NCBI GenBank assembly: GCA_964556455.1
Contig: CAZKWI010000003.1
Location: 1 to 47,189 of the forward strand
Origin: an uncultured Planctomycetia bacterium
GTDB taxonomy: Bacteria > Omnitrophota > Gorgyraeia > JABMRJ01
Length of the DNA: 47,189 nt
Direction: 5' to 3'
The notes under the pieces are model-generated. The model was not told where the DNA came from. It saw nothing but the letters and a program-made list of their open reading frames with translations, and ran no database searches. Below, one piece after another: positions 24,350-45,621 of the stretch; positions within the stretch are counted from its first letter, which is position 1; each line of letters begins with the position of its first letter. The position numbers were made by a program, and so were the translations under genes.

Positions 24350-24365
24350 GGACTTTTTACGACCG

Positions 24366-24403
24366 AAAAAATAAGCCGGGTTTAAACCCGGCTTATTTTT
24401 TTT
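24366..24403. terminator. Intrinsic terminator (symmetrical)
   Basis: AAAAAATAAGCCGGGTTT/AAACCCGGCTTATTTTTT perfect palindrome followed by a T-tract, just downstream of the OMP gene. Confidence 0.85.
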
Positions 24404-24478: not shown

Positions 24479-24507
24479 TTGACAAACCCGACTCCCTGTG
24501 ATATATT
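24479..24507 (+). promoter_or_regulatory. Putative sigma70 promoter of the nitrogen-assimilation operon
   Basis: TTGACA (24479-84)-17 nt-TATATT (24502-07) with TG extended -10 and AT-rich upstream element. Confidence 0.75.
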
Positions 24508-24526
24508 ATTTATGTTGTTGAAGTAA

Positions 24527-24583
24527 GCACAAAGATTGTGCAAATAGTGCAATGAGGCGTTCATGATGAACGCCATTTTTTTT
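24527..24583 (+). promoter_or_regulatory. Leader attenuator 1: ANTAR-type hairpin(s) overlapping an intrinsic terminator
   Basis: GCAC-AAAGATT-GTGC then GTGC-AATGAG-GCGT (A1/G4 loop), whose 3' arm overlaps terminator GGCGTTCA-TGA-TGAACGCC-ATTTTTTTT. Confidence 0.65.
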
Positions 24584-24627
24584 GACCAGGATTTGAATTT
24601 ACGTAACTTACTTAGTAGTAAGGAGTT

Positions 24628-24679
24628 AGGGTAACGAAGCCCTTTTCAGCAAAGTCGTTTGCTGAACCGGGCTTTTTTT
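24628..24679 (+). promoter_or_regulatory. Leader attenuator 2: dual-hexaloop ANTAR target overlapping an intrinsic terminator
   Basis: AGGGT-AACGAA-GCCCT and AGC-AAAGTC-GTT (both loops A1/G4), mutually exclusive with terminator AAGCCC-TT-TTCAGCAAA-GTCG-TTTGCTGAA-CC-GGGCTT-TTTTT. Confidence 0.75.
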
Positions 24680-24717
24680 ATTTTCAACGATCTGTTAAGC
24701 AAAAACAGGAGTTAACA

Positions 24718-25458
24718 ATGAGACTCTTAACCCTAACTTTTTTGTTAAGCATTTTAGCTATGCCCGCGGCTTTTGCGGGTGAGATCCTGAAAGATATCGA
24801 CATAGGAGGCAGTATGCCGTTCTACACCTCATATATATGGAGGGCTCAGAATCTGGTAGATGACCCGGTATTCCAGCCGGCCGCCTATGTTTCTTACAAG
24901 GGTTTTTCCTTCAATTTCTGGAGTAACTGGGATGTCATAGAAGGAGATGAATTTACCGAAATAGACTACACATGGGACTACTCGACTGACCTCAGTTTTA
25001 TCGATCAGGAAGAAAGCAGTTTCCTTAATATGGTGAATGTTACCGGCGGTTACACTTTCTACACGTTCCCGAACCTTGATAGTGACGATACCAGCCACGA
25101 GGCATTCGCCGGAATTTCGCTTGATACCATGCTTAATCCGACCTATACGGCTTACTGGGATTTTGATGAAGGCGACGGCTGGTACCATGAATGGGGCATA
25201 GGGCACACGTTTGACCTTGATCCTGTATCTATAGATACAGGATTTTCCATGGGGCTCAATGTTGAACAATGGGGCTTTGATACAAGTCTTACGGCGCTCA
25301 ATTTTTCAGGGAGCATCTCCGTGCCGCTTGATAGGCTCTTTAATCTCGCAGCCTTCAAATATGTGACACTGAGGCCGGATATAACCTACTCCCTGCCGCT
25401 CGATGACCAGTACGAACATGAGCTGTATGGCGGGGTATATATAGGAATAGATCTGTAA
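24718..25458 (+). CDS. Putative outer-membrane porin, TorF/MipA-like
   Basis: Signal peptide (AFA-G), SYIWRAQ..DDPVFQP, FTEIDYT, GGYTFYTFP motifs, amphipathic beta strands; directly upstream of amt. Confidence 0.7.
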   Translation: MRLLTLTFLLSILAMPAAFAGEILKDIDIGGSMPFYTSYIWRAQNLVDDPVFQPAAYVSYKGFSFNFWSNWDVIEGDEFTEIDYTWDYSTDLSFIDQEESSFLNMVNVTGGYTFYTFPNLDSDDTSHEAFAGISLDTMLNPTYTAYWDFDEGDGWYHEWGIGHTFDLDPVSIDTGFSMGLNVEQWGFDTSLTALNFSGSISVPLDRLFNLAAFKYVTLRPDITYSLPLDDQYEHELYGGVYIGIDL

Positions 25459-25488: not shown

Positions 25489-26766
25489 ATGTCTATTGAA
25501 ACTAATGCAGTCGCGATCGATACGATTTGGACGTTGATCGCCGCCTTTCTGGTATTTTTTATGCAGGCGGGATTTGCGATGGTTGAGACCGGTTTCACCA
25601 GAGCCAAGAATGCCTGTAACATCTTAATGAAGAATCTTATGGATTTCAGCCTTGGCTCAATAGCATTCTGGTTGGTCGGTTTTGGGATCATGTTTGGCAC
25701 GAGTGGATCTGGGCTCATCGGGACCGATGGTTTTTTCTTGAGCACTGCTAACCCTACAACACCTGAGGGGCTATGGCAATTTGCCTTTTGGATGTTCCAG
25801 GCGGTCTTTGCCGCTACCGCGGCAACGATCGTTTCAGGTGCGATGGCGGAAAGGACGAAATTCCCGGCGTACCTTATATATTCATTCTTTATATGCGCGT
25901 TCATCTATCCTGTAGTAGGACATTGGATCTGGGGAGGTGGATGGCTGAGTAATAAAGGGATGATAGATTTTGCCGGCTCTACTGTGGTGCATTCCGTGGG
26001 CGGTTGGGCAGCATTGGCCGGAGCTTTAGTACTCGGCCCGAGGCTGGGTAAGTATAAAAAAGACGGTTCTTCTAATGCTATACCGGGTCACAGCATTCCA
26101 TTAGCCGCGCTGGGTGTTTTTATACTCTGGTTCGGATGGTTTGGATTTAACGCAGGAAGCACAACTGCGGGGACGAATTTGAGCATAGCCACTATAGCGG
26201 TGACCACCAATTTAGCCGCAGCGGCCGGAGCGGTCCTGGCTATGTTTACTACATGGATAAGGTTCAAAAAGCCGGATACCAGTATGGCCTTAAACGGCGC
26301 TTTAGCAGGATTGGTGGCCATAACAGCGCCTTGTGCCAGCGTATCTGCGTTGAGCGCTATTATCATCGGAGCGATAGGCGGTGTGTTAGTGGTCTTCAGC
26401 ATAGAGCTTATTGACAAGGTGTTGCGTATAGACGACCCTGTCGGCGCAATATCAGTTCACGGAGTCTGCGGTGCATGGGGCACCCTTGCCGTAGGCCTCT
26501 TTGCCGAAGCCGCTTATGGCCAGGCAAGCGGTGTAGGGGCTGTTAACGGACTCTTTTTCGGAGGAGGAATGGCCCAGCTTATTACACAGTTGACAGGCGT
26601 TGCCTCTGTTTTTGCATGGGTCTTCGGGGTAGGACTTGTTCTTTTCTGTGTCATCAAGAGTACTATAGGATTAAGGGTTTCTGATGAAGAGCAGCTGAAA
26701 GGGCTGGATATAGGCGAACACGGAATGGAATCATACGCAGGATTCCAGATATTTACTACACAATAA
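25489..26766 (+). CDS. amtB: Ammonium transporter
   Basis: FMQAGFAMVETG, FQAVFAATAATIVSGAMAER, DFAGSTVVHSVGG, LWFGWFGFNAGS, IDDPVGAISVHG. Confidence 0.97.
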   Translation: MSIETNAVAIDTIWTLIAAFLVFFMQAGFAMVETGFTRAKNACNILMKNLMDFSLGSIAFWLVGFGIMFGTSGSGLIGTDGFFLSTANPTTPEGLWQFAFWMFQAVFAATAATIVSGAMAERTKFPAYLIYSFFICAFIYPVVGHWIWGGGWLSNKGMIDFAGSTVVHSVGGWAALAGALVLGPRLGKYKKDGSSNAIPGHSIPLAALGVFILWFGWFGFNAGSTTAGTNLSIATIAVTTNLAAAAGAVLAMFTTWIRFKKPDTSMALNGALAGLVAITAPCASVSALSAIIIGAIGGVLVVFSIELIDKVLRIDDPVGAISVHGVCGAWGTLAVGLFAEAAYGQASGVGAVNGLFFGGGMAQLITQLTGVASVFAWVFGVGLVLFCVIKSTIGLRVSDEEQLKGLDIGEHGMESYAGFQIFTTQ

Positions 26767-26802: not shown

Positions 26803-27144
26803 ATGAAACTTATAATCGCGATGATACAGCCTCATAAATTACCCGATGTTAAACAGGCGCTCTATGATGCGGATGTTTTTAAGATGACCGTAACCAATGC
26901 CCTGGGATGTGGTCAGCAGAAGGGTTTTACCGAAACCTACAGGGGTGTTGTCCATGAGATCAATCTCCTGAAGAAGATCAGGCTCGAGATAGCGGTGAAT
27001 GATGATTTTGTAAAGCCTACGGTCAATGCTGTAATAAGAGGCGCAAAGACCGGCAAGATAGGGGACGGCAAGATATTTGTAATGGACCTGCCGGAATGTA
27101 TAAGGATAAGGACAGGTGCCCGTGGCAGCAGTGCAGTAGGCTAA
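26803..27144 (+). CDS. glnK: PII nitrogen regulatory protein (GlnK by its linkage to amt)
   Basis: 113 aa with GCGQQKG..E.YRG and [17 protein letters not shown] motifs. Confidence 0.92.
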
Positions 27145-27162: not shown

Positions 27163-28494
27163 ATGGGAAAGTTAACGAAGAAGGATGTGTTGAAGATCGC
27201 GAAAGAGAAGGATGTGAAGTTCATAAGGCTCTGGTTCACCGATATATTCGGTCAGGTGAAGAGTTTCTCTATCACCGATAATGAGCTGGAGAATGCACTG
27301 GAGAACGGGATGGGCTTTGACGGCTCGTCTATCACAGGTTATCAGGATATAGAGGAGTCGGATATGATAGCGATGCCTGACCCCTCTACATTTGCGCTCC
27401 TGCCGTGGAGGCCCAAGGAGAAGGCGGTCGGACGCATGATATGCGATATACTTCAGCCTTCGAAAGAGCCGTATGAAGGCGACCCGCGTTATATCCTGAA
27501 GAAGGCGCTGGAGAGGGCGAAGAATATGGGTTTCGACCATTTCTATTTAGGCCCGGAGCTCGAATACTTCTATTTTAAGAACGATAGCTCCACGGAGATA
27601 CTGGATAAAGGCGGGTATTTCGATCTTACCACACTGGATGTGGCGAGTGACTTAAGGAGAGACACCATATTCTCGCTCGAGAGTATGGGCATACAGATAG
27701 AGTATTCGCATCACGAAGTGGCGCCGTCACAGCATGAGATCGATATGCGCTATGCGGACGCCCTGAAGATGGCGGACGACGTGATAAGCTACCGCGTGGC
27801 CGTAAAGGAGATCGCGAGAAAATACGGGGTGTACGCTACCTTTATGCCGAAGCCGATATTCGGACAGAACGGAAGCGGTATGCATACGCACCAATCACTC
27901 TTTAAGGGCAGTGAAAATGCGTTCTTTGACGCGAACGATAAGCATAATCTCTCGGATACGGCGAAGAAATATATAGCCGGACTCCTTACTCATGGCAAAG
28001 AGATCTGCTCTATATTCGCCCAGTGGACAAACTCTTATAAGAGGCTTGTCCCCGGATACGAGGCCCCTGTGTATCTCGGGTGGAGCCAGCGTAACAGGAG
28101 CGCTCTTATAAGGGTGCCTTGTTACCACCCCGGAAAAGAAAAGGCGACAAGGGCGGAATTTCGTTCACCGGACCCGTCATGCAACCCGTACCTTACTTTC
28201 GCGGCTATGCTCCATGCGGGGCTTGAGGGTATAGAGAAAGGGTATAAGCTGGCGGATCCGATAGATAAGAATCTCTATCACTTGAGTGACAGCCAGAGGA
28301 AATCGATGGGTATAGAGGCCTTGCCGGACAGCCTGGGAAGCGCCATAGCGGTAACCGAGCAGAGCGAACTTGTGAAAAAGGCGTTAGGCGACCATATCTT
28401 CCCACGTTATATTGAACTTAAGAAAAAGGAATGGGAAGATTACAGGATACAGGTGACGAAGTACGAGCTGGACAGGCTGCTGCCTATACTATAA
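27163..28494 (+). CDS. glnA: Glutamine synthetase type I (GSI-alpha length, 443 aa)
   Basis: FDGSSITG, GPELEYF, HHEVAPSQHEI, TFMPKPIFGQNGSGMHTHQSL, NSYKRLVPGYEAP, NRSALIRVP, EFRSPDPSCNPYL. Confidence 0.96.
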   Translation: MGKLTKKDVLKIAKEKDVKFIRLWFTDIFGQVKSFSITDNELENALENGMGFDGSSITGYQDIEESDMIAMPDPSTFALLPWRPKEKAVGRMICDILQPSKEPYEGDPRYILKKALERAKNMGFDHFYLGPELEYFYFKNDSSTEILDKGGYFDLTTLDVASDLRRDTIFSLESMGIQIEYSHHEVAPSQHEIDMRYADALKMADDVISYRVAVKEIARKYGVYATFMPKPIFGQNGSGMHTHQSLFKGSENAFFDANDKHNLSDTAKKYIAGLLTHGKEICSIFAQWTNSYKRLVPGYEAPVYLGWSQRNRSALIRVPCYHPGKEKATRAEFRSPDPSCNPYLTFAAMLHAGLEGIEKGYKLADPIDKNLYHLSDSQRKSMGIEALPDSLGSAIAVTEQSELVKKALGDHIFPRYIELKKKEWEDYRIQVTKYELDRLLPIL

Positions 28495-28508
28495 GAGTGA
28501 GGCGTCCC

Positions 28509-28733
28509 TTGTGGATAGACGAGAGTAATATTGATGAGTGTTTCCTGAGGCTGGGGCACGGGGAGGTTTACGACGTGGTCGTAGGCAATCTCGAGAAGGT
28601 GCTTATAGAGAAGGCCCTGGAGCGGACAGGCGGGAATCAGCTGACCGCCGCGAAGATATTGGGCTTGAATCGCAATACCATACGCGCTAAGATAAAGAAG
28701 TTCAGGATAAACGTGGACGGTTATAAAAGATGA
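28509..28733 (+). CDS. Stand-alone Fis/NtrC-type helix-turn-helix protein (~74 aa)
   Basis: LEKVLIEKALERTGGNQLTAAKILGLNRNTIRAKIKK HTH_8 signature; TTG 28509 after GAGG (alternative GTG 28497); ATGA overlap with gltB. Confidence 0.82.
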   Translation: MWIDESNIDECFLRLGHGEVYDVVVGNLEKVLIEKALERTGGNQLTAAKILGLNRNTIRAKIKKFRINVDGYKR

Positions 28734-31700
28734 GGATAAGAGGCGTTCCAAAAAAACAGGGCCTGTATGATCCGCAGTTCGAGCATGACAGCTGCGGCGT
28801 GGGCTTCGTCTGCAATATCAAAGGCATTACCTCCAATGATATTGTAAAAAAAGGCATAGAGGTCCTGGACCGCCTCAGTCACCGCGGGGCCGTGGGCGCA
28901 GACCCTGAAACAGGTGACGGGGCCGGTATACTCATCCAGATCCCGCACGATTTTTTTAAAAAAGAGTGCACAAAAATTGGGCTGGACTTGCCTGAAAAAG
29001 GGGAATACGGCACAGGGCTCGTTTTTCTGCCGACGTCAAAAAGAGATCGAACCTCATGCGAGGATATATTCGCGAAGGTCATAAAAAGCGAGCGGCAGGG
29101 GCTTATAGGCTGGCGTGATGTGCCGGTAGATGGAACGCGCATAGGCATAAGCGCCAGGAAGACACAGCCTGTGATGCGCCAGGTCTTTATTAAGAAACAA
29201 AAGGGCCTGGAAGATCAGATCAGTTTTGAAAGGAAGTTATATATAATAAGGAAGCGGGTTGAGAGCAAGGTCCGGTCGCTGAAGATCAAACAGAAATCCT
29301 TTTTCTATATAACAAACCTCTCGTCCAGGACATTCAGTTATAAGGGGCTCTTGATGCCTCATCAGTTGGAGGAGTTCTTTTTGGACCTTAAAGACAGGGA
29401 TATCCGGAGCGCCCTTTGTATGGTCCATTCCCGATACAGCACGAATACATTCCCTACGTGGGACCTGGCGCAGCCTTTCAGGTTCCTCGCCCATAACGGC
29501 GAGATAAATACCCTGCGCGGGAATATAAACTGGATGCGGGCAAAAGAGAGCCAGCTTGAAAGCGAGCTATTCGGCAAAGATATAAAGAAGATCAAGCCCG
29601 TGATCGTGCCGGGCGGGAGTGATTCCGCGACCATAGACAACGTATTTGAGCTGCTGGTCCTGTCAGGCAGGTCCCTTGCCCACGCTATGATGATGCTTAT
29701 CCCGGCGGCATGGGAAAATAATAGCGAAATGCCCAAAAACCTGAAGGACTTCCATGAATTCCACAGCTGTTTCATGGAGCCGTGGGACGGCCCCGCCGCT
29801 ATGGCCTTTACCGATGGTACGCGCATAGGCGCACTTCTTGACCGCAACGGTCTGAGACCGGCGCGGTATATAGTGACGAAGGACAATATGGTCGTTATGG
29901 CTTCCGAGGTCGGGGTGCTCGATATAGACCCGGCCGATATACGCCTCTCCGGCAGGCTTGAGCCCGGGAAGATCCTCTTTATAAATACAGCGAGACAAAT
30001 GATCATAAGTGACAAAGATGTAAAAGATATAGTCTCCGCCAAGAAGCCGTACGCCAAGTGGCTTAAAGAGGAAATGGTAGATCTATCGTCTCTGCCGGCA
30101 CCTGTCGTCCCCGCGAAAGCGGGGACCCACACCATAGATTCCCGCTTTCGCGGGAATGACAATGAGTTGGTAACACTCCAGAAGGCCTTCGGGTACACGA
30201 GAGAGGACCTGAAGATGCTGATGAAGCCCATGGCAGAGACCGGAAAAGAACCTATAGGATCGATGGGCAATGATACACCGCACGCCGTCCTTTCTAAGAA
30301 GCCGCAGCTGTTGTATAACTACTTCAAACAGCTCTTTGCGCAGGTCACGAACCCTGCTATCGATTTCATAAGAGAAGAGATAGTTATGAGCCTTGAGAGC
30401 TTTATAGGGCCACAGCGCAATACCTTAAGCGAAAGCTCAAAGCACGCGCATAAACTGCGCATAGAAAGGCCTGTACTTACAGATGGAGAGCTTGAAAAGC
30501 TGCGTGGCATAACCGTTAACGGTTTCAGGACAAAGACCATACCCGTCCTTTTTACCGTCGGAAAAAAACGTTCTCTTAAGAGATCGCTTGAGAGGCTGTG
30601 CAGGGATGCCGTATCGGCCATAAAAGAGGGATATAGCTTTATTATATTGAGCGACAGGGGCCTCAGCAGGACACGCGCGGCCATGCCGATGCTCCTGGCC
30701 CTGGGTGCGGTGCACCATTGTTTGATAGACAGGTCGCTGCGCACCCAGATAGGGATCATAATCGAAAGCGGAGAACCGAGAGAGGTCCATCACTTTGCGC
30801 TCCTTTTTGGTTACGGCGCGGATTGCGTAAACCCCTATCTTGCCTATGAGACGCTAAAGGGCATGGTTAAAGAGAAAGAACTTTCCGTGAGCTTAAAAGA
30901 AGCGTTAAGCAATTACAGGATAGCCGTAGATAAAGGTATATTGAAGATACTCTCGAAGATGGGCATATCCACGCTGCAGAGTTACAGGGCGGCACAGATA
31001 TTCGAGGCCCTGGGTTTAAATGAAAGCGTGATCAAAAAGGCCTTTTCAGGCACGGTCTCGCGCATAGGCGGCGTCGGCCTGGACGAGATCGAAAGAGAGG
31101 TCTTGCTCAGGCATGACCTTGCATATCCGCGGAAAGAGAATGCCCTTTCAGGTCTTGAGACAGGGGGCGTATATCAGTGGAAGAGGAACGGTGAGTTCCA
31201 TCTGTGGAATCCTGAGACTATCAGCACGCTGCAGGATGCCTGCCGCAGCAACGACTATGCCAAATATAAAGTCTTCTCCGGGCTTATAGACGACCAGTCG
31301 GATAATCCCACAACACTGCGCAGCCTGTTAAGGTTCAAGAAGACCAGGGGTATTCCGATAGAAGACCTCGAGCCTGCAGAAGAGATCTTAAGGAGATTCG
31401 CCACCGGCGCGATGAGCTTCGGATCCATATCGAAAGAGGCGCATGAGACACTGGCGCTCGCGATGAACAGGATCGGAGGCAGGTCCAATACAGGCGAAGG
31501 AGGGGAAGATCCCGCGAGATTTATCCCTCTGCCGGATGGCGATTCAAGGAGAAGCTCGATAAAACAGGTGGCCTCCGGAAGGTTCGGCGTTACGACAAAC
31601 TATCTTATAAACGCTGATGAAATCCAGATAAAGATAGCACAGGGGGCAAAACCCGGTGAAGGAGGCCAGCTGCCGGGACATAAAGTAAGTGAAATAATCG

Positions 31701-33298
31701 CACGCACAAGATACACGACCCCTGGTGTGACATTGATATCGCCGCCTCCGCATCACGATATATATTCTATAGAGGACCTGGCGCAACTGATATTCGACCT
31801 CAAGAACGCTAACCCGAACGCGCGGATAAGCGTGAAGCTTGTTTCAGAAATGGGTGTCGGAACGATCGCTGCCGGCGTTGCCAAAGGGCATGCGGATATG
31901 ATACTCATATCGGGCGGCGACGGCGGGACAGGGGCGTCCCCGAGGAGCTCGATAAGGCACGCGGGACTCCCATGGGAACTGGGCCTGGCTGAGACGCACC
32001 AGACTCTTTGTTTGAATGGTCTCAGGACAAGGACGCGCCTCCAGACAGACGGCCAGATGCGCACCGGCCGCGACGTGGCTATAGCGGCTATGCTCGGCGC
32101 CGAGGAATACGGTTTCTGTACGGCCGCACTTATAGTCATGGGCTGCGTCATGCTAAGGAACTGCCATCTCAATAGCTGCTCTCTTGGCGTAGCTACCCAG
32201 GATGCCGTACTGGAAAGGCGTTTCCGCGGAAAAGTCGAAGAGGTGGTCAATTACTTCAATTTTGTAGCGCGTGAATTGCGGGAGATCATGGCGTCACTCG
32301 GCGTAAAGAGTATTAATGAACTGGTGGGAAGGACGGATCTCCTTAAGCTTAACAAAGGCATTGTTCCATGGAAGGCGAAAAAAATAGACTATTCGAGGAT
32401 ACTCTACAGGACTGAAACCCGAAAAGAGGAATGCGTTTATAAGACCATTCCCCAGGATCACGGCGTATATAACATACTCGACCTGAAGCTGATCGAGCTT
32501 TCGAAAAAGGCCCTTAAGAAAGAAACTGAACCAGTGAATATAGAACTCAATATCAGGAACAACAACAGGACGACGGGCGCTATGTTGAGCGGTGTTGTAT
32601 GCAAAGCCCGCGGGGAGAGCGCTCTGCCTGAAGATACGATCCGCTGTAGATTTAGAGGCGTCGCGGGCCAGAGTTTCGGAGCGTTCCTTGCAAAAGGAGT
32701 GACTTTTGAGCTGGAAGGATTGGCAAACGACTATGTCGGTAAGGGTATTTCAGGAGGCAAAATAATAGTTTACCCCGACAAGAGCTCTGATTATGACCCG
32801 AAAGAGAATATAATCATAGGTAATACCACATTTTACGGCGCGATAACCGGAGAAGCTTATATAAGGGGCGTGGCAGGCGAGCGTTTCTGCATAAGGAACT
32901 CAGGTCTCCACGCTGTTGTCGAAGGTGTGGGCGACCACGGCTGCGAGTACATGACAGGCGGCATAGTAGTCGTTCTGGGCAGGACCGGCAGGAACTTCGC
33001 GGCAGGCATGTCAGGCGGCATAGCCTATGTATATGACGAAGACGACACCTTCAAGAGCAACTGCAATATGTCCATGGTCGAGTTGGATAAAATAGATACC
33101 CATGACAAAGAAGTTATACATAAGCTGCTGCATGAACATCACAGATTTACGGGAAGTGATATCGCAAGGGACGTTCTGGATGATCCTAAAATGATAGGCG
33201 AAAGATTTGTAAAGGTCATGCCGCTGGAGTATAAGACGATACTCAGGGGCGCGAAGCCGGCGGAAACATACGGCTTAGCGGATCCGTCCGATGGATGA
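28730..33298 (+). CDS. gltB: Glutamate synthase large subunit
   Basis: EHDSCGVGF Ntn Cys, HSRYSTNT, HNGEINT, MEPWDGPA, QLFAQVTNP, GAMSFGS, QGAKPGEGGQLPG, C-X5-C-X4-C 3Fe-4S motif, GXGXG domain. Confidence 0.97.
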   Translation: MRIRGVPKKQGLYDPQFEHDSCGVGFVCNIKGITSNDIVKKGIEVLDRLSHRGAVGADPETGDGAGILIQIPHDFFKKECTKIGLDLPEKGEYGTGLVFLPTSKRDRTSCEDIFAKVIKSERQGLIGWRDVPVDGTRIGISARKTQPVMRQVFIKKQKGLEDQISFERKLYIIRKRVESKVRSLKIKQKSFFYITNLSSRTFSYKGLLMPHQLEEFFLDLKDRDIRSALCMVHSRYSTNTFPTWDLAQPFRFLAHNGEINTLRGNINWMRAKESQLESELFGKDIKKIKPVIVPGGSDSATIDNVFELLVLSGRSLAHAMMMLIPAAWENNSEMPKNLKDFHEFHSCFMEPWDGPAAMAFTDGTRIGALLDRNGLRPARYIVTKDNMVVMASEVGVLDIDPADIRLSGRLEPGKILFINTARQMIISDKDVKDIVSAKKPYAKWLKEEMVDLSSLPAPVVPAKAGTHTIDSRFRGNDNELVTLQKAFGYTREDLKMLMKPMAETGKEPIGSMGNDTPHAVLSKKPQLLYNYFKQLFAQVTNPAIDFIREEIVMSLESFIGPQRNTLSESSKHAHKLRIERPVLTDGELEKLRGITVNGFRTKTIPVLFTVGKKRSLKRSLERLCRDAVSAIKEGYSFIILSDRGLSRTRAAMPMLLALGAVHHCLIDRSLRTQIGIIIESGEPREVHHFALLFGYGADCVNPYLAYETLKGMVKEKELSVSLKEALSNYRIAVDKGILKILSKMGISTLQSYRAAQIFEALGLNESVIKKAFSGTVSRIGGVGLDEIEREVLLRHDLAYPRKENALSGLETGGVYQWKRNGEFHLWNPETISTLQDACRSNDYAKYKVFSGLIDDQSDNPTTLRSLLRFKKTRGIPIEDLEPAEEILRRFATGAMSFGSISKEAHETLALAMNRIGGRSNTGEGGEDPARFIPLPDGDSRRSSIKQVASGRFGVTTNYLINADEIQIKIAQGAKPGEGGQLPGHKVSEIIARTRYTTPGVTLISPPPHHDIYSIEDLAQLIFDLKNANPNARISVKLVSEMGVGTIAAGVAKGHADMILISGGDGGTGASPRSSIRHAGLPWELGLAETHQTLCLNGLRTRTRLQTDGQMRTGRDVAIAAMLGAEEYGFCTAALIVMGCVMLRNCHLNSCSLGVATQDAVLERRFRGKVEEVVNYFNFVARELREIMASLGVKSINELVGRTDLLKLNKGIVPWKAKKIDYSRILYRTETRKEECVYKTIPQDHGVYNILDLKLIELSKKALKKETEPVNIELNIRNNNRTTGAMLSGVVCKARGESALPEDTIRCRFRGVAGQSFGAFLAKGVTFELEGLANDYVGKGISGGKIIVYPDKSSDYDPKENIIIGNTTFYGAITGEAYIRGVAGERFCIRNSGLHAVVEGVGDHGCEYMTGGIVVVLGRTGRNFAAGMSGGIAYVYDEDDTFKSNCNMSMVELDKIDTHDKEVIHKLLHEHHRFTGSDIARDVLDDPKMIGERFVKVMPLEYKTILRGAKPAETYGLADPSDG
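30103..30161. repeat. Double-hairpin palindromic repeat, family A, copy 2 (inside gltB, frame preserved)
   Basis: TGTC-GTCCCCGC-GAAA-GCGGGGAC ... GATTCCCGC-TTTC-GCGGGAAT-GACA; encodes [19 protein letters not shown]. Confidence 0.9.
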
Positions 33299-33329: not shown

Positions 33330-34751
33330 ATGGGCGACGAAAAAGGTTTCCTTAAGGTGAAAAGGCGGAAACCGGGATACAGGCCTGTGTGCGAGCGCGT
33401 AAAGGATTTCCGCGAGGTGGCTGAATCGCACGGGGATGCCGACACCAGTGAGCAGGCATCGCGCTGCATGGACTGCGGGACTCCGTTCTGCCACTGGGGC
33501 TGTCCTGTGGGGAATAATATCCCCGAATGGAACGACTATGTATTTGCTGGCAACTGGAAAAAGGCCTATGAGCTTCTCGCAGAGACGAATAACCTACCTG
33601 AGATCACAGGCAGGGTATGCCCGGCGCCCTGCGAATACGCCTGCGTCCTTGGGATCAATGACGACCCTGTGACCATACGGGAGAACGAACTTACTATTAT
33701 CGAACATGCCTTCAGGAAGGGCTGGGTAAAACCCATATCGCCAAAAAAAAGAACCGGCAAAAAGGTAGCGATAATAGGTTCCGGCCCATCGGGGATATCG
33801 GCCGCAGCAGAGCTTAACAAGGCCGGCCATAAGGTGACAGTGTTCGAGCGCGATGACAGAATAGGGGGTATATTAAGGTATGGCATACCGGATTTCAAGC
33901 TCGGGAAGGATGTGCTCGACAGGCGGATAGATATACTGAAGAAAGAAGGCATAGTTTTCAGAACGAACGTAAATGTCGGCGTGAACTATACAGTCTCAAA
34001 GTTAACAAAAGAGTATGACGCGATCGTCCTGGCCGGAGGCTCGCGCAAACCTAGAGACCTGAATATAGAAGGCCGTGAGTTTAAAGGCATACACTTTGCC
34101 ATGGATTATCTTGTCCTGTCCAACAAAAAGCTCTGCGGGTCGTTGCAGGATGAGTGTATAGACACTAATGGAAAAAAGGTAGTAGTGATAGGCGGCGGCG
34201 ATACAGGGTCTGACTGTGTCGGGACCGCTCACAGACAAGGTGCAGCCTGTGTTACTCAGATAGAGCTGCTCGAAAGGCCTCCCGAATGCAGGAGCGAGGA
34301 CCAGCCGTGGCCGAACTATCCAATGCTCCTTAAGGTCTCAACGAGCCATGAAGAGGGCGGCGAGAGGCACTGGTCTGTCCTGACCAAGAGTTTTACTGGT
34401 GAAGGCGGCCATGTAAAGAAACTGCGGTGTGTAAAGGTAGATTTTTCCGAAAAGGACAAAAATAGCTGCCCTATAATGAGAGAAATGCCGGGCAGTGAAT
34501 TTGAGATAGATGCAGACCTTGTGATACTGGCTGTGGGATTTGTCCATCCGCAGCACGAAGGCCTCCTTTCTGATCTTAAAATAGAATTTGATAAACGCGG
34601 TAATGTCAGGACCGATGACGGCTATATGACGTCAAAAAAAGGCATATTTTCCGCAGGGGACATGAGAAGAGGGCAGTCTCTAATAGTCTGGGCCATATCT
34701 GAAGGGCGCAAGGCCGCGCAGTCCGTAGATAGGTTTTTACTCGTGAAATAA
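33330..34751 (+). CDS. gltD: Glutamate synthase small subunit
   Basis: QASRCMDCGTPFCH..CP, TGRVCPAPCE..C, IGSGPSG, LRYGIPDFK, IGGGDTGSDC, GDMRRGQSLIVWAI.EGR. Confidence 0.97.
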   Translation: MGDEKGFLKVKRRKPGYRPVCERVKDFREVAESHGDADTSEQASRCMDCGTPFCHWGCPVGNNIPEWNDYVFAGNWKKAYELLAETNNLPEITGRVCPAPCEYACVLGINDDPVTIRENELTIIEHAFRKGWVKPISPKKRTGKKVAIIGSGPSGISAAAELNKAGHKVTVFERDDRIGGILRYGIPDFKLGKDVLDRRIDILKKEGIVFRTNVNVGVNYTVSKLTKEYDAIVLAGGSRKPRDLNIEGREFKGIHFAMDYLVLSNKKLCGSLQDECIDTNGKKVVVIGGGDTGSDCVGTAHRQGAACVTQIELLERPPECRSEDQPWPNYPMLLKVSTSHEEGGERHWSVLTKSFTGEGGHVKKLRCVKVDFSEKDKNSCPIMREMPGSEFEIDADLVILAVGFVHPQHEGLLSDLKIEFDKRGNVRTDDGYMTSKKGIFSAGDMRRGQSLIVWAISEGRKAAQSVDRFLLVK

Positions 34752-34809
34752 TAACATAACATAATACGGCATATAGAGTTACGAGATGTTAGTTATTTTA
34801 GAAAATTCC

Positions 34810-34838
34810 TTGATTATCAAACCGTTATTTTATATAAT
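34810..34838 (+). promoter_or_regulatory. Putative sigma70 promoter
   Basis: TTGATT-17 nt-TATAAT upstream of GAGGTG RBS and ATG 34861. Confidence 0.6.
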
Positions 34839-34860
34839 ATATAAGATAATGAGGTGCTAT

Positions 34861-35460
34861 ATGAGACACTACATATTAGTATTTGCAGTCCTGGCGGTTT
34901 TGCTGGTACCGGGAGCCATTTATGCCGAGGGCCCATCTCTGAAAAGCGCAAAGGCTACAGAAGAGACGGTAACTGCAGAGGCAATAGAGAAGCTTGTGAT
35001 AGACAGGCGTTTTGTCCCCAGCGGCTGGATGGGTGATTACGGGGATATCAGGCTGGACAAGGAATGTTCTGGTGATGATAAAGGTGATGTGCTCTGCCAG
35101 AAATGGACATATACTGCAAGAGGAGAACAGAATGCCGGCTGGTCAGGCGTGGCATGGCAGTACCCCGAGAATAACTGGGGAGAATCAAAAGGGCTCGACC
35201 TGACAGGTTATAGAAAGCTTACCTTCCGCGCAAAAGGAGAAAGAGGGGGCGAGGTCCTGGAAGTCCACGTGGGCGGATTTGACTCAAGCGTTGAGCTGAC
35301 TTACGGCCCCGTATACCTGAAGAAGAACTGGAAAGAGTACGAGATAGACCTCTCGAGAAGCGACCTTTCGAACGTCACCTGCGCTTTTGCCTGGATGGTC
35401 AAAGGCAAATACAACTGGAGCGGATGCTCGTTCTACCTTGACGATATAATCTATGAGTAA
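34861..35460 (+). CDS. Exported protein with galactose-binding-like/carbohydrate-binding-module-like domain
   Basis: Signal peptide (IYA-E); FVPSGWMGD, GWSGVAWQYPENNWG, DLTGYRKLTFRAKG, WKEYEIDL, FYLDDIIYE pattern typical of CBM-like beta-sandwiches. Confidence 0.65.
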   Translation: MRHYILVFAVLAVLLVPGAIYAEGPSLKSAKATEETVTAEAIEKLVIDRRFVPSGWMGDYGDIRLDKECSGDDKGDVLCQKWTYTARGEQNAGWSGVAWQYPENNWGESKGLDLTGYRKLTFRAKGERGGEVLEVHVGGFDSSVELTYGPVYLKKNWKEYEIDLSRSDLSNVTCAFAWMVKGKYNWSGCSFYLDDIIYE

Positions 35461-36190
35461 AAAGAAAAAAGGACCTAAGATCGCAAGCAGGTCTTCGCAG
35501 GAAGACCATATAAAGGCCATATCGAAGATAAGCAAGGCCATAGCCTCAGATCTCTACCTCGAAGATATCCTTAAGCTCATAGTGGCGGTGACCGCCCAGG
35601 CGATGGATTCCAATATATGCTCTCTTATGCTCATTAATGAGAAGCGCCGTGAGCTCGTGATCCGCGCGACACAGAGCGTAAGCGAGGATTACAATAAGAA
35701 ACCCCCGCTTAAGATAGGCGAGGGCATCGCCGGGAAGGTGGTACAGGAGAACAGTCCTACTGTAGTAAAGGACATCACCAAGGCCACAGAGTATAAGTAC
35801 CATGATATTGCCAAGAAAGAAGGCCTGCGCTCGTTACTGTGCGTGCCCTTAAGTGTAAAGAAGAAGGTCATAGGTGTTATAAACTGCTATACTCCGAAGA
35901 CCCACGAATTTACCGAAACAGAGATAGATATGCTTACCGCTGTCGCCAACCAGGCTGCCGTAGCCATAGAGAATACCGAGCTTTTGGTGAAGAGCAGGGT
36001 GATCCAGGAAGAGCTTGAATCGAGAAAGAAGACCGAGCGCGCCAAGGGCATCCTCATGAAGGAAGAGAATTTGAGCGAAGAAGAGGCATATCTTAAGATA
36101 CAGAAGTACGCAATGGATACTCGTAAGACCATGAAGGAGGTGGCAGAGGCAATTATCCTTGCTTCTGACTTAAAACGACCGAAACAATAA
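35453..36190 (+). CDS. GAF-ANTAR RNA-binding antitermination regulator
   Basis: GAF domain (CSLML, IGEGIAGKV, SLLCVPL, VIGVINCY, LTAVANQAAVAIEN) followed by ANTAR (LESRKKTERAKGILM...EEEAYLKIQKYAM...MKEVAEAII). Confidence 0.92.
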   Translation: MSKKKKGPKIASRSSQEDHIKAISKISKAIASDLYLEDILKLIVAVTAQAMDSNICSLMLINEKRRELVIRATQSVSEDYNKKPPLKIGEGIAGKVVQENSPTVVKDITKATEYKYHDIAKKEGLRSLLCVPLSVKKKVIGVINCYTPKTHEFTETEIDMLTAVANQAAVAIENTELLVKSRVIQEELESRKKTERAKGILMKEENLSEEEAYLKIQKYAMDTRKTMKEVAEAIILASDLKRPKQ

Positions 36191-36193
36191 AGC

Positions 36194-37318
36194 ATGCCAC
36201 AAAGAAGAGCAAAGATCGTCCTGGAAGACGGAAGAGTATTTAAAGGTTTTTCATTCGGCAAAGACGGCGAAAGAAGCGGAGAGATAGTCTTCAATACAAG
36301 CCTTGCTGGCTACCAGGAGATCCTCACAGACCCCTCATATAAAGGCCAGATCGTAACGATGACCTACCCCCTCATAGGCAATTACGGCATAAACCCCGAA
36401 GATATTGAATCAGACAGGATATCCGTAGAAGGCTTTGTAGTAAAAGAGAAGAGCCCCGTAGCCAGCAACTGGCGCTCCAGCCAGTCCCTCGAAGAGTACC
36501 TTAGATCGAACGGCATTATGGGAATAGAAGGCGTAGATACGCGCGCCATCACGAGGCATATAAGGCTTCAGGGCGCCATGAAGGCAGTGATATCCACCGA
36601 AGATATGGATGATAAGAGCCTTATTAAAAAAGCCAAGGCTTCGCCCGGGCTTGTCGGCAGGGATCTTGTTAAAGAGGTTACCTGCGATGAATTATTCCGA
36701 TGGACGCAGAGCGATGGGAAAGAGGCAGCGCAGAGCACACAGAAAAAAGTAAAGCCTTATAAAGTGGTTGCTATAGACTGCGGTATAAAATACAACATGC
36801 TTAGGATATTGGACGATCTGGGATGTGAAGTGGTCGTCGTGCCGGCAAAGACGGCATCAAAGGATATACTCTTCATGAAGCCGGACGGCGTATTGCTCTC
36901 TAACGGGCCGGGAGACCCGGCTGCCGTTACATACGTAGCGAAAAATATAAAAGGGCTGTTTGGAAGAGTGCCGATATTCGGCATATGCCTGGGTAACCAG
37001 CTGCTCGGCATGGCGTTGGGCGGCAAGACCTACAAGCTTAAGTTCGGCCACCATGGCGGCAATCATCCGGTTAAGGACATAAAGACCGGTAAGATATCGA
37101 TAACCGTACAGAACCACGGTTTCTGCGTGGATATGGATTCGCTTAAAAAAAGCGAAATCGAGATAACCCACGTAAACCTGAACGATAATACGCTTGAGGG
37201 TATGAGGCACAAGAATGTCCCGGCGTTCTCGGTCCAGTTCCATCCGGAATGTTCCCCGGGGCCGCATGACGCGATGTACCTGTTTAATGAATTCGTAGAG
37301 ATGATGAAAAATGCCTAA
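36194..37318 (+). CDS. carA: Carbamoyl-phosphate synthase small subunit
   Basis: GEIVFNT..GYQEILTDPSY, LSNGPGDP, GICLG (catalytic Cys), SVQFHPE. Confidence 0.97.
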   Translation: MPQRRAKIVLEDGRVFKGFSFGKDGERSGEIVFNTSLAGYQEILTDPSYKGQIVTMTYPLIGNYGINPEDIESDRISVEGFVVKEKSPVASNWRSSQSLEEYLRSNGIMGIEGVDTRAITRHIRLQGAMKAVISTEDMDDKSLIKKAKASPGLVGRDLVKEVTCDELFRWTQSDGKEAAQSTQKKVKPYKVVAIDCGIKYNMLRILDDLGCEVVVVPAKTASKDILFMKPDGVLLSNGPGDPAAVTYVAKNIKGLFGRVPIFGICLGNQLLGMALGGKTYKLKFGHHGGNHPVKDIKTGKISITVQNHGFCVDMDSLKKSEIEITHVNLNDNTLEGMRHKNVPAFSVQFHPECSPGPHDAMYLFNEFVEMMKNA

Positions 37319-37334
37319 ACGAACAATACATTTT

Positions 37335-37388
37335 TGTCATGTCCGCGAAAGCGGACATCCATGGATTCCCGCTTTCGCGGGAATGACA
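37335..37388. repeat. Double-hairpin palindromic repeat, family A, copy 3 (carA-carB junction)
   Basis: TGTC-ATGTCCGC-GAAA-GCGGACAT-CCATGG-ATTCCCGC-TTTC-GCGGGAAT-GACA. Confidence 0.9.
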
Positions 37389-37399
37389 GCGAGTTAAAA

Positions 37400-40300
37400 A
37401 TGCCGAAACGCACTGACATAAAAAAGATCCTGATAATAGGCTCCGGGCCTATCGTTATAAGCCAGGCGTGCGAGTTCGACTATTCCGGCACCCAGGCCTG
37501 TAAGGCACTGAGGGAAGAAGGCTTTGAAGTGGTCCTAGTGAATTCGAATCCGGCCACTATAATGACGGATCCCGAAATGGCGGATGTCACTTACATCGAG
37601 CCTATAACGCCCGATGTACTGGAGAAGATCATCGCCAAAGAGAGGCCTGACGCGCTCCTGCCGACACTTGGCGGCCAGACAGGCCTGAACAACGCCATGA
37701 AGATCACCGAGAACGGCGTGCTCGATAAATATAATGTCAAGATGATAGGCGCCGACTACGAGGCCATAAAAAAGGCCGAAGACAGAGACGATTTCAAGAA
37801 GGCTATGAAGAAGATAGGCCTCGATCTTCCAAAAAGCGGCCTGGCGTATAATACCGAAGAGGCCAAAAAGGTCCTTGAAGAAATAGGCCTTCCGGTTATC
37901 ATAAGACCCAGCTTTACCCTCGGAGGAACGGGCGGAGGGATCGCTAGTACAAAGAAAGAGTTTGATGCGATAGTGGATCTTGGATTAAAGAACAGCATGA
38001 TAAGCGAGATCCTGATAGAGGAGTCCATAGTCGGCTGGAAAGAATATGAACTTGAGGTGATGAGGGACAAGAACGACAATGTCGTTATAATCTGCTCCAT
38101 AGAGAACCTGGACCCCATGGGCATACATACGGGAGATTCGATAACCGTCGCACCCGCCCAGACGCTGACCGATAAAGAGTACCAGAAGATGAGGGACGCG
38201 TCTCTGGCCATAATAAGAGAGATAGGGGTCGAGACCGGCGGGTCCAATATACAATTTGCCGTGGATCCAAAAGACGGCAGGATGGTGGTCATAGAGATGA
38301 ACCCGAGGGTCTCGAGAAGTTCAGCCCTGGCAAGTAAGGCTACGGGTTTTCCTATTGCTAAATTCGCCGCCAAACTCGCCGTAGGATATACACTCGATGA
38401 GATACAGAACGATATAACAAAAGAGACGCCTGCCTCATTTGAGCCCACGATCGATTACTGCGTCGTGAAGATACCGAGGTTCACCTTCGAGAAGTTCCCC
38501 GAGGCAAAAGACATATTGGGCATTTCCATGAAGTCTGTAGGAGAGACCATGGCTATCGGCAGGACCTTTAAGGAGGCTCTTCAGAAGGGCCTGCGCGGCC
38601 TGGAGATAGGACATACAGGCCTTGATAACAAGAAATCTTTTAAGGATATCCCCGAAGAGAAGATGGAGCTGAGGCTGAAAGAGCCTAACGCCTCGAGGGT
38701 ATTCTACGTAAAATACGCATTGCAGCAAGGTTATTCCTCCGAAAAGATATTCGAGCTTACAAAGATAGACCCGTGGTTCATCGAGAATATCCGCCAGATC
38801 GCGGAACTCGAAAAAGAGCTGAAGGGGTCTAAAAAGAAGCTGTCCACCGAATTACTGCTTAAGGCAAAGCAGTACGGTTTCAGTGACAAACAGATAGCAG
38901 GTTTTACAGGTTCGGATGAATTGTCGGTCAGGAAACTCAGGGCCTCGAAATGCGTGGACGTCACTTACAAGCTGGTCGATACATGTGCCGCTGAATTCGA
39001 GGCGTACACGCCTTACTACTATTCGACCTATGAAACGGAGTGCGAAGCCAGGCCTACGGAAAAGAAGAAGATCATGATACTGGGCGGAGGTCCAAACAGG
39101 ATAGGGCAGGGTATAGAGTTCGATTACTGCTGCTGCCATGCCTCTTTCGCGCTCAAAGAGCTGGGGTATGAGACCATCATGGTCAATTCCAACCCAGAGA
39201 CGGTATCTACCGATTACGACACATCCGATAAGCTCTATTTCGAGCCGCTCACATTTGAAGATGTTATGAATATCGTCGATAAAGAAAAGCCGCACGGTAT
39301 CATAGTGCAATTCGGCGGACAGACGCCGCTCAACCTCGCGAGATGGCTCAGCAGGGCAGGCGCCCCCATAATAGGCACCAGTGTAGATTCCATAGACATG
39401 GCCGAAGACAGGGATAAGTTCGCGAAGATGGTGAAGAAGCTTAATATAAACCAGCCGGAGAACGGCTCGGCCAAGAGCAGAAATGAGGCGGAAGAGATCG
39501 CCAAAAGAATAGGCTATCCAGTGCTTATGAGGCCTTCATACGTACTGGGCGGCAGGGCGATGAAGATAGTATACAGCGATAAGCAGCTGAACTTTTTTTT
39601 GAAAGAGGCGATAGATGTATCTGAAGAGCACCCCATACTCATAGATAAATTCCTGGAAGGCGCTATCGAAGTGGATGTCGATGCGATCTCAGACGGCGAG
39701 AGGACCATCATAGGCGGTATAATGGAGCATATAGAGAGCGCCGGGATCCATTCGGGCGACTCAGCCTGTGTGCTTCCTCCGCATACGTTAAACGACGATG
39801 TGATAGAGACGATCAAGTCACACACATACGCACTCTCAAAAGAATTGATGGTCAAGGGGCTCCTGAATATACAGTTCGCTGTAAAGGGGGACGATGTCTA
39901 TGTGCTGGAGGTGAATCCCAGGGCGTCCAGGACCGTACCTTTCGTAAGCAAAGCAACAGGTATCCCGCTTGCCAAGATAGCAGCGAAGGTCATGGCCGGA
40001 AAGACCCTCCAGGAGCTGGGTTTCACGGAACAAAGACAAGTAGAACATTTTTCGGTGAAAGAATCCGTGCTCCCGTTCTCCAGGTTCTCCGGGGTGGACA
40101 TAATACTTGGCCCCGAGATGAAATCGACCGGTGAAGTGATGGGCGTGGACAGGTCATTCGGGGTCGCTTATTATAAGTCACAGATAGCCGCGGGGCAGAT
40201 GCTGCCCGACGAAGGCATGGTCTTTATAAGCGTCAAGAACAGTGATAAGCGCGAGATAGTCTTTATCGCCAAGAAACTCTGCGATATGGGATTTAAGATA

Positions 40301-40594
40301 TGTGCCACCAAGGGGACCGACAAGGTCCTCAGGTCGAACGGCATCGACTCGGAACTCGTAGGCAAGATAGGCGAAGGGCGGAAAGAGATATCGAACCTCA
40401 TAAAAAAAGGCCAGGTGCATCTTATCATAAATACACCTTCAGGCCCCAGAGGGCAGAAGGACGCGAACCCCATAAGGAGCATGGCTGTCCTTCAGGGGAT
40501 ACCGTGTATTACTACGATCCAGGGTGCCCAGGCCGCGGTGAACGGGATAGAGAGCATAAGGAAGAAAGACTTCGAGGTATGGTCAATACAGCAA

Positions 40595-40624
<30 letters not shown>
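37400..40624 (+). CDS. carB: Carbamoyl-phosphate synthase large subunit, copy 1
   Basis: [30 protein letters not shown] start at ATG 37400; two ATP-grasp halves and MGS domain. Confidence 0.97.
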
Positions 40625-42262
<1,638 letters not shown>

Positions 42263-45300: not shown

Positions 45301-45621
45301 AATCACGGTGTCGAAAGCCAGCTGATAAATAAGCTGCATGAAGGCAGGCCCAATATAGCCGACGCGATAAAGAATAACGAGATAAATCTCATTATTAACA
45401 CTCCTGTCGGACGCTACAGCAAGTTCGACGACAGCTATATCAGGATGAAGGCTATACAGCACAAGATCCCATATATCACGTCTATGGCAGCGGCAGGCGC
45501 CAGCGTGAAAGGGATAAAGGCTATGAAGGCATCCACTGTTTCGCCGAAACCTTTACAGGAGTATTACAGCGACAGACAACAGCCGCCATCAGAGAGGTTG
45601 AATGCAGAAAATAGGATTTGA
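42379..45621 (+). CDS. carB: Carbamoyl-phosphate synthase large subunit, copy 2 (divergent paralog)
   Basis: [60 protein letters not shown] domain; GAAAGGTGG RBS. Confidence 0.96.

Follow-up and report, generated by a model that had tools for sequence, protein, structure and literature searches.

We consider it likely that the leader at positions 24479-24717 of a 47,189-nucleotide (nt) stretch of Candidatus Omnitrophota DNA (the window, which is contig C3 of a 1.97-Mb assembly of 157 contigs, 96% complete) contains tandem ANTAR-type attenuators, and that these are read by a GAF-ANTAR antiterminator gating the glutamine synthetase and glutamate synthase (GS-GOGAT) genes behind them. The evidence, all of it obtained by computation, comprises the RNA structures, their conservation and covariation in other genomes, the regulon that they mark out, and the synteny of the regulator gene with its proposed targets. 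Comparisons were made with a set of 41 relatives, the source genome included, and with the best 80 loci of at least 526 tblastn-confirmed relatives of the regulator in a collection of species-representative genomes.

The leader opens with a sigma70-type promoter (24479-24507, + strand), in which TTGACA (24479-24484) and TATATT (24502-24507) are separated by a 17-nt spacer. This promoter agrees with the consensus at 11 of 12 positions and has a TG ahead of the -10 element, which would place the transcription start near 24512-24515; promoter-like sites in the region overall are not in excess (3 found, 4.1 expected). The upstream gene ends with its own terminator (24365-24402), indicating that a separate transcription unit begins at the leader promoter. 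The leader, of about 200 nt, folds at -61.4 kcal/mol (z -4.39, with 0/200 shuffles equal; fold statistics are given throughout as z scores and ranks against 200 shuffles), and contains two intrinsic terminators on the + strand. Terminator 1 (24556-24583) has an 8-pair stem (24556-24574) followed by A and U8 (24576-24583), and a 61-nt segment around it reaches -18.6 kcal/mol (z -3.25, 1/200 shuffles equal). Terminator 2 (24636-24679), which a simple terminator scan passed over owing to its internal loops, has a two-part stem (24636-24675) with GCCC at 24639-24642 pairing with GGGC at 24669-24672, and U7 at 24673-24679 (-23.0 kcal/mol, z -4.47, 0/200 shuffles). The promoter and both terminators had been described in an initial annotation made from the sequence alone, and are present where it placed them.

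Four small hairpins, all on the + strand, accompany these terminators. Attenuator 1 is formed of P1 (24527-24541, GCAC-AAAGAUU-GUGC, with a 7-nt loop) and P2 (24546-24561, AGUGC-AAUGAG-GCGUU, with a hexaloop), and attenuator 2 of the hexaloop hairpins P1' (24628-24643, AGGGU-AACGAA-GCCCU) and P2' (24648-24659, AGC-AAAGUC-GUU), the last of which lies in the apex region of terminator 2. Every loop has A at position 1 and G at position 4 (A1/G4), and the four hairpins are those that the initial annotation had listed. Each attenuator is a pair of adjacent small stem-loops, P2' being the weak member, joined by a short linker of 5 nt in attenuator 1 (4 nt if an A-U pair is counted) and 4 nt in attenuator 2. 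All loops but that of P1 have 6 nt, and the 7-nt loop of P1 is a lineage variant. The 3' arm of P2 (24557-24561) falls within the 5' arm of terminator 1 (24556-24563) and the 3' arm of P1' (24639-24643) is the 5' arm of terminator 2, so that hairpin and terminator are mutually exclusive in both attenuators, as had been proposed. Dual hairpins with A1/G4 loops, overlapping a terminator, are the rule established by experiment for the RNA targets of EutV, NasR and AmiR, where an ANTAR protein dimer bound to the two loops blocks the terminator (PMC3369931).

The same arrangement recurs in other genomes. Orthologous leaders before porin-amt genes in five relatives (G005, G013, G009, G024 and G031) follow the plan of the window, with a GCAC...GUGC hairpin that has A1/G4 and differs in its remaining loop letters, and a second A..G.. 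hairpin whose 3' arm opens a terminator, the stem sequence of which varies by genome. The P1-type hairpin with differing loop letters is found in G005 and G013, as is the P2 form GC-AA[AU]GAG-GC of the window; close orthologues of the attenuator-1 variant number only two. The fetched loci have 102 terminator-like hairpins that precede nitrogen genes; of these, 36 had dual A1/G4 hairpins overlapping the 5' arm, against 0-9 for eleven other letter requirements and 22 for a register shifted by one base. Two or more tandem terminators were present in 23/65 leaders of nitrogen genes, and a tandem layout is therefore usual in this system. The overlap of hairpin and terminator is kept across lineages although the sequences change.

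We searched the source genome with two covariance models, R1, built from 15 elements of which none came from the source genome, and R2, built from 15 elements of a second type, all from other genomes, in which the 3' arm of a hairpin opens a long terminator whose apex is an A/G...G loop. Attenuator 2 (24625-24679) was the best of 150 candidates scored with R2 (37.9 bits, E 3.1e-7), so that the covariance-model search proposed in the initial annotation recovered it at the top of the list. The best R1 match in the genome lies outside the window, at C40:1526-1570 (40.9 bits, E 2.6e-6). Matches dismissed as chance were those to R1 on contigs C57, C17 and C11 and that to R2 on C10, all inside open reading frames (ORFs) and without terminators; the second-ranked R2 match (E 0.005), which was discarded, lies inside an asparagine-synthase-like ORF. 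Simple motif scans of the source genome returned nothing beyond the window leader and chance sites.

The stems covary in both alignments that we built. In A5, which holds 44 elements aligned to R1, 95.8% of cells are paired (fitting to the model favours pairing), with compensatory changes at 7/9 pairs and a covariation score reached by 0/500 shuffles; slid controls are 19-60% paired. In A6, a MAFFT alignment of second-type elements made with no model fitting, 86.7% of cells are paired, 5/8 pairs show compensatory changes, and again 0/500 shuffles reach the covariation score. The loop letters proposed to contact the protein are near-invariant in A5 (P1 loops, A1 in 42/44 and G4 in 42/44; P2 loops, A1 in 40/44 and G4 in 44/44) and loop position 3 is freely variable, in line with the loop conservation on which the initial annotation had made its reading depend. 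The 7-nt first loop, which had been called atypical, is the norm in this lineage (29/44 P1 loops), and 8-nt P2 loops occur in 7/44; linkers in relatives range from 1 to about 25 nt. P1' is homologous to hairpins of the GGAU-AA[AC]GAC-GUCC type in 15 elements of other genomes, in which pair 8:17 is AU in nine and GC in six. The terminator apex in relatives is a hairpin of four to five pairs, often with a 7-nt loop that has A (or G) first and G fourth, and its helix is 88.3% paired with compensatory changes at 3/4 pairs. Taken together, these comparisons support the assignment of the window elements as ANTAR-type attenuators.

We additionally identified a second canonical attenuator in the source genome (C40:1480-1600), comprising a promoter, the hairpins GGCAC-AAUGUCA-GUGCC and GGAAC-AAAGGC-GUUCC, and a terminator. 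On one side it is flanked by a second glnA (145-1467) and on the other by an operon, extending to about 6350, of NuoE-like, NuoF-like, Fe-S and glutamate-synthase-domain genes (locus L155), which we propose as a further target of the same regulator. In all, 20 model matches outside the training sets were followed up, of which 19 were usable. Fifteen of these precede nitrogen-assimilation or glutamine-using genes, namely a glutamate-synthase-domain protein in six cases, glutamate dehydrogenase in two, and one each of glutamine synthetase type I, glutamine synthetase type III, carA, a class-II amidotransferase, a GltD-like pair, gltB and CTP synthase. Two of the remainder precede a 173-aa regulator of the GerE type and two are probably false. 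An R2 match on G008:C6 was rejected as lying inside a transketolase ORF, another on G012:C95 as having no ORF downstream, and locus L169 was dropped as too short and a duplicate of L168.

The proposed antiterminator is a one-component protein of 245 aa encoded at 35453-36190 (+ strand), in which the Pfam families GAF_2, GAF and ANTAR all score above their cut-offs. The ANTAR domain (PF03861, residues 184-235) scores 69 bits against a cut-off of 27.3 (72.8 bits in the scan of the genome), and GAF_2 (residues 36-173) scores 84.5 bits. Pfam found no Response_reg domain in the protein, upholding its initial description as a GAF-ANTAR regulator that lacks a receiver, and a scan with PF03861 showed its ANTAR domain to be the only one in the genome. 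The ANTAR part resembles Rv1626, the response regulator 6wsh and NasR (4akk, E 1.5e-5), and the GAF part resembles PtsP and NtrC-like GAF structures. Homologues, which have identities of 53-76% among the 80 best, come from Candidatus Omnitrophota metagenome-assembled genomes (MAGs) in almost all of the closest loci and also from MAGs of Nitrospirota, Syntrophales, Actinomycetota and Aerophobetes, both among the matches listed. In several loci from outside Omnitrophota (L130, L135-L139, L148 and L149), an ORF of about 145 aa that matches the regulator query stands directly upstream of the GAF-ANTAR gene.

In partial matches, the GAF domain of this protein comes closest to those of PtsP (EI-Ntr) and of NifA, at scores far under the full-length cut-offs (74.6 against 583 and 59 against 529 bits) that give nothing firm on the ligand. 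The GAF domain of NifA binds 2-oxoglutarate. Glutamine is bound by the EI-Ntr GAF domain (PMC4848567). Because of these matches and of the glutamine binding by EI-Ntr, glutamine and/or 2-oxoglutarate would be the most likely input of the regulator. A complex prediction for the P-II trimer and the GAF domain scored 0.02, which speaks neither for nor against binding of P-II.

Elements and regulator gene are linked by both position and distribution. Genes for amt, P-II, glnA, gltB/D or carA/B lie in the fetched flanks of 58/80 orthologue loci, and for 31/102 of the leader terminators the gene that follows is that of the regulator. A5 matches are on the strand of the regulator gene in all 43 cases (of 44) that have the gene in the locus, the exception being the C40 match. 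PF03861 is present in 30 of the 41 relatives, usually once per genome, and matches at E <= 0.01 are distributed as follows between ANTAR-positive and ANTAR-negative genomes: 14/30 against 1/11 for R1 (six training sequences among the matches in relatives), 17/30 against 3/11 for R2 (four training sequences), and 22/30 against 4/11 for either model. Because of the relatedness of these genomes, the counts lack independence. Among the ANTAR-negative genomes, the match in G012 and the weak one in G034 are doubtful.

The initial annotation had also set this mode of control against that by NtrBC and sigma54. We found neither a sigma54 DNA-binding domain nor a strong sigma54-activator domain in the 96%-complete assembly, which is consistent with that contrast and goes no further, as sigma54 is present in 3/5 same-family relatives; among the 41 relatives there was no anticorrelation between sigma54 and ANTAR. 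In G020, a genome that has sigma54 and in which no ANTAR domain was detected, the porin-amt genes are preceded by a sigma54-type TGGCAC-N5-TTGCA element and by no attenuator (L035/L047).

From these data we infer the following mechanism. RNA polymerase would initiate at the strong sigma70-type promoter and, by default, terminate near 24583 (terminator 1) or 24679 (terminator 2), since the small alternative hairpins are much less stable than either terminator fold. When active, a GAF-ANTAR dimer would attach to the nascent RNA at two adjacent hairpins, through their A1/G4 loops, and hold P2 and P1' closed, consuming the 5' arms of the terminators, and polymerase would read through into the porin-like gene, amt, the P-II gene, glnA, gltB and gltD, and probably into the regulator gene and carAB. 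The serial arrangement of two attenuators would multiply the tightness of the off state and sharpen the response, and read-through into the regulator gene would constitute positive feedback, with a basal level perhaps supplied by an internal promoter-like site. The GAF domain would report nitrogen status directly, low glutamine and/or high 2-oxoglutarate making the protein active; this direction, with activity under nitrogen limitation, is suggested by the nature of the target genes.

Several observations weigh against this reading, beside the model fitting of A5, the training sequences among the matches and the low partial scores of the GAF domain given above. The hairpin pattern alone does not exceed chance in this genome, and its significance comes from conservation. 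A loose descriptor of dual A1/G4 hairpins matched 22 of 992 terminator-like hairpins genome-wide, in a count that omits both window elements (an A before the T-run hid terminator 1, and the second hairpin of attenuator 2 lies inside its terminator), and ten other letter pairs gave 14-41; single A1/G4 hairpins were found at 93/992 terminators, against 63-131 for other letter pairs. The small hairpins are not unusually stable (20/200 and 11/200 shuffles fold equally well), and P2' has three pairs only, one of them G-U. On attenuator 1 (24526-24562), R1 scores 13.4 bits (E 8.7, fifth in the genome), because the P2 register, a GC-AAUGAG-GC variant, departs from the majority type, and the support for this attenuator is three orthologous leaders, with no significant model match. 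The chance-level counts and the ordinary stability of the small hairpins would suit an account in which the hairpins stand by chance beside two ordinary, perhaps insulating, terminators, with no regulated switch. The upstream gene, however, has a terminator of its own, and a promoter stands between it and both leader terminators; a model from other genomes finds attenuator 2 at E 3e-7, the stems covary, and the regulon is coherent. Because of these comparative data we regard a chance origin as scarcely credible. We judge it extremely unlikely, too, that the leader acts as a riboswitch for some metabolite, or by attenuation through a leader peptide, with A1/G4 loops that are incidental. Glutamine-sensing RNAs do occur upstream of nitrogen genes in other phyla, and riboswitches are commonly found in tandem. 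Rfam, however, gave no match in the window at gathering score and noise only in the leader at E <= 10, inspection by eye showed no plausible leader ORF that has a ribosome-binding site, and conservation is confined to two tiny hairpins, without any larger fold.

The distribution of the ANTAR gene raises a different difficulty. Eight of the 30 ANTAR-positive relatives have no match to R1 or R2, and genome G008 (94% complete, 20 contigs) carries three tandem attenuators before porin-amt (G008:C9, L039/L041) with no ANTAR domain found even at E <= 10. G008 is a real exception to the pairing of element and ANTAR gene; in G004 (76% complete), too, the element is present and an ANTAR gene was undetected. 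The attenuators could, on this evidence, be nitrogen-responsive and read by another factor, either an RNA-binding protein or one dependent on P-II, with the GAF-ANTAR protein acting otherwise or as one among several inputs. Dual A1/G4 hairpins are, however, the experimentally defined ANTAR element (PMC3369931), the regulator gene is syntenic with the targets and often follows a leader terminator of its own in the proportions given above, and at 94% completeness the ANTAR gene of G008 may be unassembled, so that we consider a different reader unlikely. Regulation by the GAF-ANTAR protein, as initially proposed, accordingly gains from its being the only ANTAR protein of the genome and from the synteny, and is left qualified by G008. 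The protein might alternatively bind the hairpins and act on RNA stability or translation, with the terminators as constitutive partial stops, and translation-repressing ANTAR proteins have been reported in actinobacteria (bioRxiv 10.1101/660928). Here the hairpins overlap the terminator arms, the ribosome-binding site is about 30 nt further downstream, and the overlap is conserved across lineages despite sequence change, which makes a post-transcriptional action very unlikely. We thus retain antitermination by the GAF-ANTAR protein as the preferred reading.

The genes behind the leader form a cluster on the + strand with intergenic gaps of 0-36 nt. The first encodes a secreted porin-like protein (24718-25458) that has no Pfam or NCBIfam match and whose nearest Atlas clusters include 'TorF family putative porin', a lead only. 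It is followed by five genes assigned with Pfam, amt (25489-26766), P-II (26803-27144), glnA (27163-28494), gltB (28730-33298) and gltD (33330-34751). Between glnA and gltB, within 28431-28733, lies a small Fis-type helix-turn-helix (HTH) protein (HTH_8, 53.7 bits), which may be a second, DNA-level regulator of the cluster; its ORF as listed overlaps glnA by 64 nt and its true start is probably later. At least 10 other loci (including L073, L081, L099, L101, L103, L104, L112 and L127) have a homologue of this protein immediately ahead of gltB. Ahead of the regulator gene, a 224-aa ORF (34786-35460) encodes a secreted protein that matched no family of Pfam or NCBIfam and for which tblastn found no counterpart in the fetched loci. 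This ORF overlaps the regulator gene by 8 nt, and its true start is probably the ATG at 34861, from which the N-terminus resembles a signal peptide.

Downstream of the regulator gene, carA (36194-37318) begins after 3 nt and is followed by carB (37334-40624), both on the + strand, and carAB are probably co-transcribed with the regulator gene. In other genomes, too, carA or carAB come after an attenuator or after the gene of the regulator. After carB come pyrG (CTP synthase, 40667-42262) and a second full-length carB (42379-45621). Two genes for the large subunit of carbamoyl-phosphate synthase flank that for CTP synthase, and all of these are glutamine-using enzymes, clustered behind the regulator. 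The proposal that one leader gates the whole cluster has the short gaps in its favour, and terminator-like sites on the + strand within the cluster are not above shuffled expectation. It is made uncertain by a promoter-like site (34810-34838, + strand; TTGATT, 17 nt, TATAAT), just before the ATG at 34861, which may transcribe the regulator gene separately. This site matches the consensus at 10/12 positions, is weak, lies in a region without an excess of such sites, and may serve as an internal promoter for basal expression of the regulator. Public sequencing runs listed as holding the locus comprise eight DNA runs from two studies and no RNA runs.

We made several side observations on the attenuator-bearing loci. 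Many leaders have a conserved TACTTGTA-like word some 10-15 nt ahead of their first hairpin, at the place where the window has its sigma70 -10 element; it was seen in L081, L109, L112, L127, L130, L137, L149 and L164 and in G009, G024 and G031. In several of these genomes, the gene for a 173-aa protein of the GerE/LuxR type follows an attenuator (L165 and L168) or lies shortly before the leader of the porin gene (G009 and G031). Together, the word and this protein may represent an activator, or an alternative sigma-like factor, that is controlled through ANTAR. In one assembly, the same attenuator-bearing sequence occurs twice, as L168 (G007:C4) and as L169 (the end of G007:C13), either as a repeat or as an assembly duplicate. 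Finally, at a contig end in the source genome (C98:47-140), an ATGTG-AATGAG-CACAT hairpin precedes a long perfect palindrome that has no T-run and may be a repeat element.

A broader proposal, which we put forward tentatively and rate at somewhat under an even chance, is that nitrogen metabolism in Omnitrophota, and in several further lineages that are mostly anaerobic (Nitrospirota, Syntrophales, Geothermincolia-type Actinomycetota and Aerophobetes), has the GAF-ANTAR protein as its master regulator. It would sense glutamine and/or 2-oxoglutarate directly, through a GAF domain like those of PtsP and NifA, and, by serial RNA attenuators alone, set the expression of the entire glutamine-glutamate node, comprising Amt, P-II, glutamine synthetase types I and III, the forms of GOGAT, glutamate dehydrogenase, carbamoyl-phosphate synthase, CTP synthase and amidotransferases, as a post-initiation replacement for NtrBC, GlnR or NrpR. 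The uncultivated Omnitrophota gain in any case a testable model of nitrogen control, consisting of one small protein and an RNA motif of about 40 nt that together appear to govern ammonium uptake, glutamine synthetase, GOGAT and glutamine-using enzymes. The one-component ANTAR proteins described as characterised in the literature searched are of the NIT and PAS/LOV types only, and the regulator is a good candidate for the first characterised GAF-ANTAR protein; since its orthologue group has at least 526 members across several phyla, a result on one protein would transfer widely.

ANTAR attenuation of nitrogen genes has been in print since 2010-2012, and our finding is an extension of it to a new lineage and a little-studied type of sensor. 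Control of core GS-GOGAT genes by antitermination, as the initial annotation put it, has comparative support and is not a new idea, as ANTAR nitrogen regulons were predicted in 2012 (PMC3369931) and a case in Geobacter had been tested (PMC2995071). Ramesh et al. (2012) predicted from covariance matches that ANTAR motifs, with several to a transcription unit, precede genes for P-II, ammonium transporter, glutamine and glutamate synthase and arginine metabolism, including 13 elements in six transcription units of one Desulfotomaculum genome, and drew the conclusion that nitrogen metabolism makes wide use of ANTAR regulons (PMC3369931). The available text of that paper had no characterised GAF-ANTAR protein as of 2012 (PMC3369931), that of a later one, from 2020, counted just two characterised one-component ANTAR proteins, NasR and PAL (PMC7496416), and that of a 2025 review treats GAF-ANTAR merely as an architecture (PMC12591593). 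Our literature search, which did not cover most subscription journals, found no characterised GAF-ANTAR nitrogen regulator.

The window leader shares with the predicted regulons of Desulfotomaculum acetoxidans, D. reducens and Pelobacter carbinolicus the placement of ANTAR motifs before nitrogen genes; the phyla differ, and those regulons are predictions whose regulators and sensor domains are unnamed in the available text (PMC3369931). The GnfK/GnfR system of Geobacter sulfurreducens is similar in that an ANTAR regulator relieves premature termination in the leaders of nifH, glnK and amtB, and GnfR-dependent antitermination of nitrogen genes was associated by Ueki and Lovley (2010) with a motif of the GC-AANGGC-GC type (PMC2995071). 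The conserved CAGGCAANGGCGCC of GnfR targets overlaps the terminator (PMC2995071), and the GC-AANGGC-GC hairpin has the form of P2 here. In contrast, GnfR is the response regulator of a two-component system, is itself governed by a sigma54/GnfLM cascade, and acts on targets that have RpoN promoters (PMC2995071), whereas the system described here has a one-component GAF protein and sigma70-type promoters. The GAF sensor is likened to PtsP (EI-Ntr) and NifA by its best partial matches, at the level of partial scores, and the outputs of those proteins are a phosphotransferase and a sigma54 activator.

As one-component proteins in which a sensor gates RNA binding, NasR (NIT-ANTAR, from Klebsiella oxytoca) and PAL (PAS-LOV-ANTAR) resemble the regulator (PMC7496416), and differ from it in sensor domain and in signal, which for them is nitrate and light respectively. 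The eut leaders of Enterococcus faecalis, read by EutV, resemble the window leader in their dual A1/G4 hairpins, in a short linker (5-12 nt in eut), in the overlap with terminators, in the presence of several elements per gene cluster and in having an ANTAR protein as reader (PMC3369931). Unlike EutV, the regulator has a GAF sensor in place of the phospho-receiver, with no kinase partner; unlike the eut leaders, the elements of this lineage usually have a 7-nt P1 loop (29/44), and in attenuator 2 the first hairpin takes the 5' arm of the terminator while the second is the terminator's own apex. The targets also differ, being genes for ammonium assimilation here and for ethanolamine use in E. 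faecalis.

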